From a virus (lineage: Duplodnaviria > Heunggongvirae > Uroviricota > Caudoviricetes), in the IMG/VR virus record IMGVR_UViG_2859827302_000009: a DNA stretch of 6,599 nt; one strand, written 5' to 3'. Below are positions 1-6,599 of the stretch, one piece after another. A program made the position numbers and the translations under genes. The notes under the pieces are model-generated. The model was not told the DNA's origin, did no database searches, and was given only the letters and a program-made list of their open reading frames with translations. The number at the start of each line of letters is the position of its first letter. Positions within the stretch are counted from its first letter, which is position 1.

Positions 1-921
1 TCATGCTTTCCCCCAATCTTTACGTGGATCAAAAGACGACTGGGCGTCTGCCAGTTGCTGCCACAGCGCGGCAGTGTTTTCATCCGGTTTCGGCGGCATC
101 ACGATTTTCAGTACCGCATACAGATCGCCGGTCTGTTTTTTGCTCACCAGACCTTTGCCTTTAACGCGCAATCGTTGCCCGGCCTGGCTGCCTGGCGGGA
201 TAGTCAGCAAAATGCTTTCTTTCAGTGTTGGAACGGTGACTTTAGCACCCAGCGCCGCTTCCCACGGGCTAACCGGCACCACAATTTCCAGATCCTGGCC
301 GACAATATCGAACAGCGGATGTGGCGCAATATGAATCACCAGCCACAAATCGCCATTTGGACCACCGTTTTCGCCCGGCGTCCCCTGGCCTTTCAGACGG
401 ATGCGTTGACCATTGCCGACGCCCGCCGGGATCTTCACATTCAGCGTTTTCGGGATTTCCTGTTCGATCATGCCAAAGGCGTTATAAACCGGCAGGTTAT
501 AGCTGATGGTACGCTTATGCTCAGTCAGCGTTTCTTCGAGGAATACCGCCACTTCGATTTCAATATCGTGGCCGCGTGCGGCGGGGCGTTGACGGCTCTG
601 GCGGGCATGCTGACCGAAAATTGACGAGAAGATATCGTCAAAATCTTCGGCATTAAAACTCTGACCGTCGCCATGATGGAACTGACGGTTAAATTGCGGA
701 TCGTTGCGATGTTGCCACATCTGATCATACTCAGCGCGACGTTGTTCATCACTTAACACTTCCCAGGCTTCAGCGACCTCTTTGAAGCGGGCTTCGGCAT
801 CCGGTTCTTTGCTGACATCAGGATGGTATTTACGGGCCAGTCGACGATAGGCGGTCTTGATTGTCTTGAGATCGTCCGTCGGTTTCACGCCCATGATGGC
901 GTAATAATCCTTTAATTCCAT
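1..921 (-). CDS. cbpA: Curved DNA-binding protein CbpA (DnaJ-like co-chaperone), complete 306 aa; stop at 1..3, ATG at 919..921
   Basis: Full-length ORF whose translation ([53 protein letters not shown]...) matches my recollection of E. coli CbpA, with a J-domain HPD motif near the N-terminus. GC-rich, typical of core E. coli coding sequence. Confidence 0.95.
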
Positions 922-1100
922 AGCGTTATCTCGCGTAAATCAACACAAATTGAAGGAACCCCTGTAAGGTAACTCCTATAAGTGTAGGGTAATCCTCAAA
1001 ATTTCATATGCCAACACAGAATATGTTATTGAAATCATCGTGGAGAGGAGGTCGCCATCAATATGGGTTGCTGAACATATTTTAAACAGGTGAAAAAGGG
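922..1100 (-). promoter_or_regulatory. cbpA upstream regulatory region; candidate stationary-phase-type -10 element CTACACT on the minus strand at 981..987
   Basis: Sits directly upstream of the cbpA ATG. The hexamer-like CTACACT resembles the sigma-S -10 consensus CTATACT. cbpA is known to be stationary-phase induced. The exact transcription start cannot be determined from sequence. Confidence 0.35.
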
Positions 1101-1307
1101 TGAGCGATTTTTGATAGTTGAACTAGGCACTTTAAGTTTAACTAGGGCGTCATTATTTATTAAATTTTATAGACGCTATATATGGGTAGTAATATACATG
1201 GAATTAGTTGCACTGCAAATAATTATTTGAAATAGGCCTGGAACGATATAAAAAATGAGTACGAAAAAAATCAAACATATTCAATCACGCTTTTTGAAAA
1301 CACACTG

Positions 1308-1472
1308 GTGTGTTTTATGCGGTTATACAATGAACTCAGACGTAAAGTAAATGAAGAGGATACTCCATGTCTGGAATGTGAATCACTAGAAAAAGAATTT
1401 GAGGAAATGCAGAATGATAATGATCTATCATTATTTATGAGAACATTGCGTACTAATGATACACAAATTTAT
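1308..1472 (+). pseudogene. 5' fragment of an unidentified ORF (55 codons from GTG 1308, 52 from ATG 1317), cut off exactly at the IS1 end
   Basis: ORF-track frame reads MCFMRLYNELRRKVNEEDTPCLECESLEKEFEEMQNDNDLSLFMRTLRTNDTQIY and then continues into IS1 terminal sequence. AT-rich with a weak ribosome-binding site. It occupies the position of the gene between cbpA and agp (yccE in K-12), but I cannot confirm identity from memory. Confidence 0.3.
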
Positions 1473-1487
1473 GGTAATGACTCCAAC

Positions 1488-1865
1488 TTATTGATAGTGT
1501 TTTATGTTCAGATAATGCCCGATGACCTTGTCATGCAGCTCCACCGATTTTGAGAACGACAGCGACTTCCGTCCCAGCCGTGCCAGGTGCTGCCTCAGAT
1601 TCAGGTTATGCCGCTCAATTCGCTGCGTATATCGCTTGCTGATTACGTGCAGCTTTCCCTTCAGGCGGGATTCATACAGTGGCCAGCCATCCGTCATCCA
1701 TATCACCACGTCAAAGGGTGACAGCAAGCTCATAAGACGCCCCAGCGTCGCCATAGTGCGTTCACCGAATACGTGCGCAACAACCGTCTTCCGGAGCCTG
1801 TCATACGCGTAAAACAGCCAGCGCTGGCGCGATTTAGCCCCGACGTATCCCCACTGTTCGTCCAT
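1488..1865 (-). CDS. insB: IS1 InsB frame (expressed as the InsAB' fusion by -1 frameshift); ORF shown from first Met
   Basis: Translation [44 protein letters not shown]... matches IS1 InsB. The frame continues upstream to the frameshift site. Confidence 0.85.
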
Positions 1866-1909
1866 TTCCGCGCAGACGATGACGTCACTGCCCGGCTGTA
1901 TGCGCGAGG

Positions 1910-2185
1910 TTACCGACTGCGGCCTGAGTTTTTTAAGTGACGTAAAATCGTGTTGAGGCTAACGCCCATAATGCGTGCAGTTGCCCGGCATCCAACGCCA
2001 TTCATGGCCATATCAATAATTTTCTGGTGCGTACCGGGTTGAGAAGCGGTGTAAGTGAACTGCAGTTGCCATGTTTTACGGCAGTGAGAGCAGAGATAGC
2101 GCTGATGTCCGGCAGTGCTTTTGCCGTTACGCACCACCCCGTCAGTAGCTGAACAGGAGGGACAGCTGATAGAAACAGAAGCCAC
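1910..2185 (-). CDS. insA: IS1 InsA (transposition inhibitor / N-terminal part of the InsAB' transposase), 91 aa, GTG start
   Basis: Translation [39 protein letters not shown]... is the canonical IS1 InsA with its zinc-finger CxxC...CxxC motif. The A6C -1 frameshift heptamer (reverse complement of gtttttt) lies at 1928..1934. Confidence 0.9.
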
Positions 2186-2240
2186 TGGAGCACCTCAAAA
2201 ACACCATCATACACTAAATCAGTAAGTTGGCAGCATCACC

Positions 2241-2766: not shown

Positions 2767-3935
<1,169 letters not shown>

Positions 3936-4007
3936 TGGAGCACCTGTGTTGTTCTGAGGTGAGCATATCACCTCTGTTCAGGTGGCCAAATTCAGTGTGC
4001 CACTTCA

Positions 4008-4184
4008 AAGCAGCCAGATTTCTGGTGCGGTTAATAAATGAGGCTGAGCTGGGTTCAGCTTGTTCCGCAGAATCTGCACATTCATGCCTGCACGTTCTGC
4101 CAGTTGCACCAGATTGTGGCGCAGTGCAAATGCACGACAGGCTTCATCAAAATATGGATGTTTGGAAACTTGGTAATCAAACAT
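4008..4184 (-). pseudogene. Phage CII-like regulatory protein (186 CII family), N-terminal 59 codons; truncated by IS911, whose terminal TGA supplies the stop
   Basis: [59 protein letters not shown] resembles the N-terminus of coliphage 186 CII as I recall it. The likely true start is ATG 4184 (the ORF track begins at TTG 4190). An agagg Shine-Dalgarno lies upstream. Confidence 0.6.
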
Positions 4185-4216
4185 GGTCAATGCCTCTGAT
4201 GTATTTCAGAATCGAA

Positions 4217-4438
4217 CTAATTAAGGTTTAGATTGCATTCTGAAAGCGCATCAACGGTCATTGCTGCTATGTTGATCATCACTTTTTCGCGTTTTTTATC
4301 TTTGCGCAGACGGTGACGGATAAGGCGTCCATCAGCCAACATGTCATTGATGGTATCGATGGATAGCCCTGTCAGCTCGCTATAGCGTTCAATAGTCACA
4401 TGAGGCGTGGTAAGAGTGATTGAAATGTTAGGTCTCAT
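4217..4438 (-). CDS. Small HTH protein in the Apl/Cox position of a P2/186-type switch (putative excisionase / lytic-promoter regulator), 73 aa
   Basis: It is the first gene of the transcript divergent from the cI-like gene and sits directly upstream of the CII-like gene. The motif [27 protein letters not shown] resembles the Cox-type HTH. ATG at 4438 is preceded by a GAGGA-like Shine-Dalgarno. Confidence 0.5.
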
Positions 4439-4563
4439 GATGCAACATTCCTCGTTTAATGATGATTAATCAGGACGAATACGGATCGTTTGTATTTTGT
4501 GAACACCATAAGCATACGATCGCACAGTGAAATCATCAAGATAAAAGTTCACTTGGAGTGACC
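4439..4563. promoter_or_regulatory. Divergent promoter/operator region of the immunity switch (between the Apl/Cox-like and CI-like genes)
   Basis: A 125-bp AT-rich gap between divergently oriented genes. Contains a perfect 10-bp palindrome TGATTAATCA (4463..4472), an ACGATCG-type palindromic core near 4516..4522, and GTGAA(C/A) motifs at 4499..4504 and 4527..4532 with an inverted copy at 4547..4553. Confidence 0.4.
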
Positions 4564-5133
4564 ATGAATTTGGAGAAAGGCGGACGAGGCGCCATAGAGC
4601 GCATGGTAGAAGCTTATGGATTCAAGACTCGACAGGCGTTGTGCGATCATTTAGGAATCTCTAAAAGTACACTCGCCACACGCTACATGCGTGACTCATT
4701 CCCAGCAGAATGGGTAATCCAGTGCGCCCTTGAAACGGGCACCTCGCTTAATTGGCTCACAACCGGACATGGTTCAAAGCAAACTTCAGGTAATACAAAT
4801 ACTATGGAAGTTGCTAAATATGTATTATCTGATGGTGCCTTGCGTGAAGACGGTTTTTATATTTTTGATAAGGGATTTCTACCCTCTACGTTTAAAAAAC
4901 CTTTTGTCATCACAGATAACAATTCTGAATTTATTTGTGATAAAGAATTTGATGACATACGTGATGGTAAATGGGTAATAAGTATTGATGGCGAAGTAAC
5001 GATCCGTGACATTACTCGTTTACCCGGTGGAAGAATCTTCGTCGAGGGTGGAAACAGAGCCTTCGACTGTAAGATAGAAGACATTGAAATAATTGGTAAA
5101 ATTATAAGTTTAACAGTTAAATATGTTAGATGA
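4564..5133 (+). CDS. Phage CI-type repressor (coliphage 186 CI family: N-terminal CI HTH domain plus C-terminal oligomerisation domain), 189 aa from ATG 4564
   Basis: ggag Shine-Dalgarno 5 nt before ATG 4564 (the ORF track starts at GTG 4558). N-terminal IERMVEAYGFKTRQALCDHLGISKSTLATRYMR...CALETGTSLNWLTTG and C-terminal ITRLPGGRIFVEGGNRAFDCKIEDIEIIG resemble 186 CI as I remember it. Length and position (divergent from apl/cII, same strand as int) fit. Confidence 0.7.
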   Translation: MNLEKGGRGAIERMVEAYGFKTRQALCDHLGISKSTLATRYMRDSFPAEWVIQCALETGTSLNWLTTGHGSKQTSGNTNTMEVAKYVLSDGALREDGFYIFDKGFLPSTFKKPFVITDNNSEFICDKEFDDIRDGKWVISIDGEVTIRDITRLPGGRIFVEGGNRAFDCKIEDIEIIGKIISLTVKYVR

Positions 5134-5148
5134 TACCGGGAGGAAACT

Positions 5149-5352
5149 ATGCTTGGTAAAGTATTTTTTGTGGTTTTATCATGCTCTTTATCATGCTCTT
5201 TGTTATTAAGCCCACTAACTACCTATGCTAAAAATTATCCTTGTTCTGGGAAAAAGGGAGGTGTCTCTCACTGTACCTCCGATGGAAAATTTGTTTGCAA
5301 TGATGGAACTATTAGTAAATCCAAAAAAATCTGTACTAAAAACTCACGATAA
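5149..5352 (+). CDS. Small secreted cysteine-rich basic peptide, 67 aa precursor (predicted Sec signal peptide, mature form about 41 aa with 4 Cys); function unknown
   Basis: Strong Shine-Dalgarno ggagg 7 to 8 nt before ATG 5149, which lies 15 bp after the cI-like stop. The N-terminus [27 protein letters not shown] has the charged, hydrophobic and A-x-A-like cleavage parts of a signal peptide. Mature part is [41 protein letters not shown] do not recognise a homolog. Confidence 0.5.
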
Positions 5353-5528
5353 CTTTTGCTTTTATATCTGCGTCTAAAATAAAAATGAGCCGCAGGTTAA
5401 CCGCAAAAGTTACATGCTCACATAGCAAAAAGAATAGCCAACTTCATTATGGCTTCAGTGAGATGTATGGTCGGGTGATGCTGCCAACTTACTGATTTAG
5501 TGTATGATGGTGTTTTTGAGGTGCTCCA

Positions 5529-5804
5529 GTGGCTTCTGTTTCTATCAGCTGTCCCTCCTGTTCAGCTACTGACGGGGTGGTGCGTAACGGCAAAAGCACT
5601 GCCGGACATCAGCGCTATCTCTGCTCTCACTGCCGTAAAACATGGCAACTGCAGTTCACTTACACCGCTTCTCAACCCGGTACGCACCAGAAAATTATTG
5701 ATATGGCCATGAATGGCGTTGGATGCCGGGCAACTGCACGCATTATGGGCGTTAGCCTCAACACGATTTTACGTCACTTAAAAAACTCAGGCCGCAGTCG
5801 GTAA
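5529..5804 (+). CDS. insA: IS1 InsA, 91 aa, GTG start
   Basis: Protein identical to the copy 1 InsA. The A6C frameshift heptamer A AAA AAC lies at 5780..5786. Confidence 0.9.
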
Positions 5805-5848
5805 CCTCGCGCATACAGCCGGGCAGTGACGTCATCGTCTGCGCGGAA

Positions 5849-6226
5849 ATGGACGAACAGTGGGGATACGTCGGGGCTAAATCGCGCCAGCGCTGGCTGT
5901 TTTACGCGTATGACAGGCTCCGGAAGACGGTTGTTGCGCACGTATTCGGTGAACGCACTATGGCGACGCTGGGGCGTCTTATGAGCTTGCTGTCACCCTT
6001 TGACGTGGTGATATGGATGACGGATGGCTGGCCACTGTATGAATCCCGCCTGAAGGGAAAGCTGCACGTAATCAGCAAGCGATATACGCAGCGAATTGAG
6101 CGGCATAACCTGAATCTGAGGCAGCACCTGGCACGGCTGGGACGGAAGTCGCTGTCGTTCTCAAAATCGGTGGAGCTGCATGACAAAGTCATCGGGCATT
6201 ATCTGAACATAAAACACTATCAATAA
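5849..6226 (+). CDS. insB: IS1 InsB frame (InsAB' transposase by -1 frameshift); ORF shown from first Met
   Basis: Protein identical to the copy 1 InsB ORF. Confidence 0.85.
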
Positions 6227-6241
6227 GTTGGAGTCATTACC

Positions 6242-6599
6242 GAAAAACAGAAGCATCCCTATCAGTAAAGAGCTTTACGAAGAGATCATGGCGCTTGATG
6301 GGTTCAATTTCTTCACAGACTGCTATTTTCAATTTTTATCCGTGATGGAAAAAACGTCTATCGTGCTCCCTCGCGGTCAACTCACACACGTTCTGCGCCA
6401 TACGTTTGCGGCGCACTTCATGATGTCGGGTGGAAACATTCTGGCCTTACAAAAAATTCTCGGACACCACGATATAAAAATGACTATGCGTTACGCACAT
6501 CTGGCACCGGATCATCTGGAAACGGCGCTCCGTTTCAATCCTCTGGCAACGCTGCCAAGTGGCGACAAAGTGGCGGCAGCGGTTGGCATTACCCCGTAA
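6242..6599 (+). pseudogene. int: Tyrosine recombinase / phage integrase (P2 Int family), C-terminal fragment of about 118 codons; 5' two-thirds missing at the IS1 junction
   Basis: LTHVLRHTFAAHFMMSGGNILALQKILGHHDIKMTMRYAHLAPDHLETALRFNPL matches the catalytic C-terminus of P2-type integrases (conserved Arg/His box and the Tyr in RYAH). The frame is open from the IS1 end and stops with TAA at 6597..6599. No integrase N-terminus is present upstream of IS1. Confidence 0.8.

Follow-up and report, generated by a model that had tools for sequence, protein, structure and literature searches.

The control of cbpA transcription has been described in detail in Escherichia coli K-12, where overlapping promoters for E-sigma-70 and E-sigma-38 have been found (Singh et al., 2011; PMC3130263). 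The numbering used for this region starts from the sigma-70 start, the longer of the two transcripts being the product of E-sigma-70 (Singh et al., 2011; PMC3130263). Of the two promoters, that of sigma-38 dominates, and its transcript is shorter by 5 nt (Chintakayala et al., 2013; PMC3547828). In Figure S2 of the same paper, the two −10 hexamers are drawn with a 1-bp overlap, the mutant fragment reading ...gattGccctGGact..., and a TA to GG mutation in the −10 hexamer has been shown to abolish the promoter (PMC3547828). Further upstream, the nucleoid protein Fis forms three complexes with the cbpA region of K-12, where only one canonical site has been found, and in growing cells it blocks the transcription initiated at the P6 promoter from reaching cbpA (PMC3547828). 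Another layer of regulation has been described for the divergent gene yccE in Shigella flexneri. In this bacterium, yccE is silenced by H-NS and carries a MxiE box 81 bp upstream of its start (Table S2 of PMC9769918), and its MxiE-dependent expression is abolished by mutation of the box (G6C/T10A). In the promoters that carry them, MxiE boxes overlap with the −35 region (PMC9769918).

The DNA compared here with these systems is a stretch of 6,599 nucleotides, referred to below as the window. Its positions 922–1300 are, with high confidence, the native cbpA–yccE control region, including the published sigma-38/sigma-70, Fis, P6 and MxiE elements and a pair of AACTAGG words that resemble each other by chance. 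The identity with K-12 at every mapped element, the positions, the conservation and the population frequencies come from the present analysis; the sigma-factor dependence, the Fis footprint, P6 and the function of the MxiE box come from published experiments in K-12 and S. flexneri. According to this reading, cbpA would be transcribed from two overlapping core promoters, a dominant sigma-38 promoter (start at about 974) and a weak sigma-70 promoter (start at 979). In growing cells, Fis bound to some 55 bp (1069–1124) would block the read-in from the strong P6 and the weak P4 promoters. On the other strand, the MxiE box would let MxiE/IpgC overcome the H-NS silencing of the AT-rich yccE in Shigella, and the AACTAGG words of the yccE promoter would owe their perfect likeness, itself fortuitous, to a rare C-to-T change at 1124. 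From the match in sequence, we infer that the mapped elements would work in the same way in this strain.

The cbpA–yccE locus and its decayed surroundings

The control region is flanked by one intact and one decayed gene, the latter cut by an insertion sequence:

1–921, minus strand: cbpA coding sequence, for the curved DNA-binding protein / DnaJ-like co-chaperone of 306 aa (open reading frame; annotation of the matches; 99% identical to K-12)
1182–1472, plus strand: 5′ fragment of the yccE pseudogene, with its ATG at 1182 and TAG at 1233–1235 for the CAG of K-12 (codon 18), cut by IS1
1473–2240, minus strand: IS1 copy of 768 bp that replaces 849 bp of yccE (terminal repeats; gap in K-12 homology; match annotated as IS1A)

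Positions 922–1300 thus comprise the divergent cbpA–yccE intergenic region (922–1181) and the 5′ end of the dead yccE. The original prediction that this is the native, AT-rich upstream region of cbpA is borne out. Identity to E. coli K-12 is 99.05% over positions 3–1472, from cbpA through the 5′ end of yccE, and the neighbouring annotation under the matches reads cbpA, then yccE. The GC content is 0.338 over 922–1300 and 0.362 over 922–1181, against 0.531 in cbpA, and the yccE region is itself AT-rich (about 31% GC). Alignment to the K-12 cbpA promoter, which had been proposed as a check, shows the window to be identical over 922–1040, and three single bases (1041 C>T, 1062 G>T and 1124 C>T) account for the differences from K-12 in the control region. 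Both −10 elements, the sigma-70 −35, the primary Fis site, the −10 of P4 and the −35 and −10 of P6 are identical to those of the K-12 cbpA region (PMC3130263, PMC3547828), and the order and spacing of the elements are the same; unlike K-12, the window has a yccE inactivated by a nonsense codon and by an IS1-associated 849-bp deletion. An Rfam scan of 800–2700 at a permissive threshold returned no RNA family. To judge from the sequence, the home of this divergent control region is the E. coli/Shigella chromosome, and the IS1 load together with the broken-up yccE points to a Shigella-like genome.

The published coordinates were converted to those of the window by setting +1 (sigma-70) at position 979. 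With this setting, all the published mutated bases have the required identity:

−11: A required, in TACCCT; matches at +1 = 979
−7 and −6: T and A required, the first two bases of TACACT; match at +1 = 979
−94: C required, in the primary Fis site; matches at +1 = 979
−108: G required, in the primary Fis site; matches at +1 = 979
−217 and −216: T and A required, in the P6 −10; match at +1 = 979

Downstream of the control region, the homology with K-12 ends at 1472 and resumes at 2241–2761, a segment with the 3′ end of yccE, the intergenic spacer and the 5′ end of agp. What remains of the yccE coding sequence after IS1 is its last 107 bp or so (pseudogene span 1182–2347). No target-site duplication was found at the ends of this IS1 (1473–2240), which is consistent with an IS1-associated deletion. 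The next gene, agp (glucose-1-phosphatase; 2650–2761), keeps only its first 37 codons approximately, and K-12 homology stops at 2761. An IS3-family element starts at about 2759–2761 and extends to about 4000, with transposase open reading frames at 2767–3606 and 3633–3971 (minus strand); its OrfA presumably resembles that of IS911. Positions from about 4005 to 5352 are a P2/186-like prophage remnant that contains a CP76-like open reading frame (4005–4190, minus strand), a small one (4217–4438, minus strand), a CI repressor (4564–5133; Pfam Phage_CI_repr and Phage_CI_C) and a YdcA-like small lipoprotein (5149–5352). In other chromosomes the same prophage block adjoins phage GpA and IS66 genes, not cbpA; the CI repressor lies in several chromosomes beside the same insertion sequence and prophage remnant, with the cbpA side in none of the six places shown. 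The join at 2759–2761 is therefore read as a rearrangement. A second IS1 copy (5474–6241) has disrupted a gene for a phage integrase, of which 6242–6599 encode the C-terminal part. The two IS1 copies are in inverted orientation, bracket a 3.2-kb segment, and are both 99.9–100% identical to the same IS1 of other genomes.

The Fis insulator and the MxiE box

Upstream of the core promoters, the converted coordinates, a consensus scan and comparison with S. flexneri place the following elements:

1069–1124, no strand: region of 55 bp protected by Fis from DNase I (published as −90 to −145) and called the 'insulator' (published footprint converted to window coordinates)
1073–1087, no strand: primary canonical Fis site GAACATATTTTAAAC, with G1 and C15, published as −108 to −94 (published mutations; the bases match)
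1079–1084, minus strand: TAAAAT, −10 of the weak P4 promoter, inside the primary Fis site (published map)
1191–1219, minus strand: P6, an intragenic sigma-70 promoter in yccE directed toward cbpA (consensus scan; the published −217G −216G changes hit T1196 and A1195)
1101–1117, plus strand: MxiE box of yccE, TGAGCGATTTTTGATAG, identical to the functional box of S. flexneri 2457T and 81 bp upstream of the ATG at 1182

The 15 bp at 1073–1087 are AT-rich, have G1 and C15 and lie within the DNase I footprint, as a Fis site should. P6 consists of a −35 TTTGCA (1219..1214), a spacer of 17 bp and a −10 TATATT (1196..1191), and its published start at −204 corresponds to 1183. This promoter was also recovered independently, as the sole good minus-strand consensus match at that position.

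Regarding the other strand, the 17 bp at 1101–1117 match GTATCGTTTTTTTANAG, and the mutational proof obtained in S. flexneri indicates that they would act as a MxiE box. The yccE promoter of S. flexneri 2457T (PMC9769918) has the identical 17-bp box at the same 81-bp distance from an AT-rich yccE; it differs in having AACCAGG directly after the box, whereas the window has AACTAGG, and in the window the regulated gene is a pseudogene. E. coli K-12, which is without MxiE, keeps near-identical box-like sequences (GAGCGTTTTTTGATA) upstream of yfdF, yjgL and yccE, those of yfdF and yjgL being at about 7940 and 5365 in the K-12 loci L090 and L091, respectively. The possibility that the AACTAGG repeats belong to an architecture shared by these three chromosomal MxiE-box genes was discarded, as only the box aligns among yccE, yfdF and yjgL. 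Comparison of the YccE and YfdF proteins gave no detectable relationship.

The MxiE box (1101–1117) falls wholly inside the region of the Fis footprint (1069–1124). The published MxiE and Fis studies of the cbpA–yccE region do not appear to connect the box with the insulator: cbpA is absent from the main text of the MxiE paper (PMC9769918), and the Fis paper predates the finding of the MxiE box. A competition between MxiE/IpgC and Fis in Shigella can be imagined from this overlap, an idea to which we give a low probability. If it were true, either the activity of type 3 secretion would de-insulate cbpA from P6, or Fis would gate the activation by MxiE according to growth phase, and the rare T1124, at the edge of the footprint, might tune the competition between both proteins.

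The AACTAGG pair upstream of yccE

Two similar 12-mers lie at the distal end of the footprint region and beyond it:

1116–1127, plus strand: repeat copy 1, AGTTGAACTAGG, in which AACTAGG is perfect thanks to a rare T at position 1124, where K-12 has C
1135–1146, plus strand: repeat copy 2, AGTTTAACTAGG, located where the −10 of the yccE MxiE-box promoter would be expected

The original prediction placed the first AACTAGG at 1119–1125 and took the two copies to be 21 bp apart, that is, two helical turns. The first copy is actually at 1121–1127, 2 bp away from that position, and the second at 1140–1146, so that the start-to-start spacing is 19 bp and the idea of two helical turns fails, 19 bp not being a multiple of 10.5 bp. 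The frequency of such a pair by chance was estimated with dinucleotide-preserving shuffles, in which an exact local 7-mer direct repeat at 8–40 bp spacing was looked for. A repeat of this kind arises in 40% of the shuffles of the intergenic region and in 66% of those of 922–1300. The 12-mers AGTTGAACTAGG and AGTTTAACTAGG differ at one base, and an 11/12 match is mildly unusual, arising in 1.9% and 4.6% of the shuffles of the same two regions, respectively. Other inverted and direct repeats in 900–1500 are of 9–14 nt, AT-rich and widely separated, and were taken as chance.

A lack of conservation of the repeats in related strains had been named as a refutation of the original prediction, and this is what is observed. 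Among nine aligned E. coli-type sequences, window included, five have AACCAGG as copy 1, two have AAACAGG, and the remaining two, the window and LF3-1, have AACTAGG; as copy 2, four have AACTAGG, three AACTGGG and two TACTAGT. Both copies are AACTAGG only in the window and LF3-1 (2/9). In K-12, as in S. flexneri 2457T (from a primer sequence), copy 1 is AACCAGG. Many of the variable intergenic columns of this alignment fall in or around the two repeats; the segment 1073–1117 (Fis core and MxiE box) is invariant and 922–1040 (core promoters and leader) almost so. At the population level, the exact 61-mer 1100–1160 is present in 4 of 5,426 complete E. coli genomes, and with one mismatch (the K-12 type) in a further 1,646 of them. 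About 1,200 genomes keep cbpA and lose the homology beyond about 1084, because yccE has been deleted, and are without either AACTAGG copy. Among the species-level loci, the segment 1085–1472 was found in those of E. coli only (L001, L003 and L004), and one Escherichia sp. locus has a 105-bp match of 77% identity inside the coding part of yccE. The strain and population data thus indicate that the perfect repeat is due to a single base (T1124), a rare and derived allele of an AT-rich segment that is specific to a lineage.

Two functional explanations of the pair have been considered. In the first, the repeated words would be the core of the yccE promoter, with a −35-like TTGAAC in copy 1 and the −10 region in copy 2, their mutual similarity being incidental. 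The geometry is suggestive: copy 1 begins with the last two bases of the MxiE box, the box ends at 1117, TTGAAC occupies 1118–1123 and copy 2 follows 18–29 bp further, at the expected −10, in agreement with the overlap between MxiE boxes and the −35 region of their promoters. However, no hexamer of copy 2 has both A at position 2 and T at position 6, the consensus scan finds no plus-strand promoter upstream of 1182, no published yccE transcription start was found in the papers examined, and the box promoters of yfdF and yjgL have unrelated sequence at this place. This explanation is accordingly considered unlikely.

In the second, the two 12-mers would be real protein sites, either the second and third sites for Fis, of non-canonical sequence, or points of H-NS nucleation, forming part of an insulating array. 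The view of the region as a nucleoid-protein binding array is right in spirit, as Fis occupies 1069–1124 and yccE is silenced by H-NS, and mistaken in placement, as the footprint touches the 5′ part of copy 1 only. Copy 1 overlaps the distal 9 bp of the footprint, with T1124 at its distal edge. The three Fis complexes set against one canonical site would leave room for additional ones, and the deletion delta-60, in which both copies are gone, begins to relieve the repression by Fis, while delta-30, which keeps both, does not (PMC3547828); in addition, an 11/12 match occurs in only 2–5% of the shuffles. Against this, copy 2 (1135–1146) is wholly outside the footprint, neither copy contains a G1/C15 Fis frame when read from the sequence, a spacing of 19 bp leaves the copies out of helical phase, no part of the region varies more than the repeat positions, the footprint core 1073–1117 being invariant, and the perfect repeat is limited to 4/5,426 genomes, the segment itself being missing from about 1,200. 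Protein sites at the 12-mers are therefore very improbable, and there is a similarly slim chance that copy 1 makes a minor contribution to the distal binding of Fis. The AACTAGG pair is a chance similarity and not a phased array, and the claim should be dropped.

The overlapping sigma-38 and sigma-70 promoters of cbpA

The core promoter elements of cbpA, all on the minus strand, are as follows:

981–987, minus strand: CTACACT, in which −13C is followed by TACACT, the −10 hexamer of the cbpA promoter that depends on sigma-38 (position; Fig. S2 of PMC3547828; conservation in 81/81 loci)
986–991, minus strand: TACCCT, the −10 of the cbpA promoter that depends on sigma-70, the weaker of the two (A990 is the base changed in the published −11G mutant)
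1009–1014, minus strand: TTGGCA, the sigma-70 −35, separated by 17 bp from TACCCT (the '−35' label stands there in Fig. S2)
922–974, minus strand: 5′ untranslated leader of cbpA, between the ATG and the sigma-38 start at about 974

Since every published mutated base is right at +1 = 979, transcription from the sigma-70 promoter, which consists of TTGGCA (1014..1009), a 17-bp spacer and TACCCT (991..986), starts at 979; the exact choice of TTGGCA as −35 hexamer is suggested by the 17-bp spacing to TACCCT. In the same fit, the sigma-38 promoter has TACACT (986..981) preceded by C987 at −13, and its start is at about 974. The sigma-70 start is then 5 nt upstream of the sigma-38 start, and the two hexamers share 1 bp (position 986). 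A C at −13 directly before a TAYRCT hexamer (987..981, minus strand) is what is found in RpoS-type promoters. With the sigma-S extended −10 consensus KCTAYRCTTAA (Weber et al., 2005, quoted in PMC5650638), the window shares the C at −13, TAYRCT as TACACT, and T and A at −6 and −5, and departs from it in having C at −14 (K = T/G) and T at −4 (A in the consensus). A mapped start and mutations of the hexamer are available for the window through its identity to K-12 over 922–1040, the experiments being those of K-12.

The promoter labels used in the literature deserve a comment. In PMC3547828, the sigma-38 promoter is P2 in the Introduction and the Discussion, but the Results assign −11G to P2 and −7G−6G to P1; by the numbering, −11G falls in TACCCT, the sigma-70 hexamer. 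Because these P1/P2 labels are inconsistent, TACACT has been assigned to sigma-38 on the basis of transcript length, numbering and consensus. A generic scan for promoters and terminators left the cbpA core promoters unflagged and returned only P6 and two other weak matches, no more than in shuffles; the core promoters were missed because TACCCT and TACACT match TATAAT at only three of six positions.

The conservation of the element was examined in cbpA loci from 80 species-level genomes, from Escherichia to Proteus, which together with the window make 81, by aligning the 120 bp that precede the ATG. All four specified bases of CTAnnnT (C, T, A and the last T) are invariant at the same aligned position in 81/81 loci, at about 65–68 nt from the cbpA ATG in most of them; the three inner positions vary, and the flanks do so freely. 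The most frequent form is CTACACT (36 loci), followed by CTAAGCT (11), CTAAACT (10), CTACGCT (8) and CTATACT (7), and the rarer ones are CTATAAT (6), CTAAGAT (2) and CTACAAT (1). This conservation means that the element is more than chance. A fortuitous CTACACT, with the stationary-phase start of cbpA elsewhere, deserves almost no credence: although the bare 7-mer is expected 0.43 times in a window of this length and occurs at least once in 68 of 200 shuffles, here it coincides with the published, mutationally tested −10, keeps the same position in all 81 loci, and in K-12 its chance origin has already been disproved by the primer extension and mutagenesis on record. By position and conservation, CTACACT is thus the sigma-S-type −10 of cbpA, the downstream one of the two published overlapping hexamers, and the stationary-phase −10 originally predicted on the minus strand at 981–987 is the published sigma-38 element.

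The cbpA–yccE control region is ordinary, has already been published in detail and is of low interest in itself. Its recognition anchors the window firmly to the native cbpA–yccE locus, with a significance that goes little beyond annotation. In this strain, the control elements of cbpA have remained intact although insertion sequences destroyed the neighbouring yccE and agp. At the level of the family, the published promoter is cleanly confirmed by comparison, CTAnnnT being invariant upstream of cbpA.
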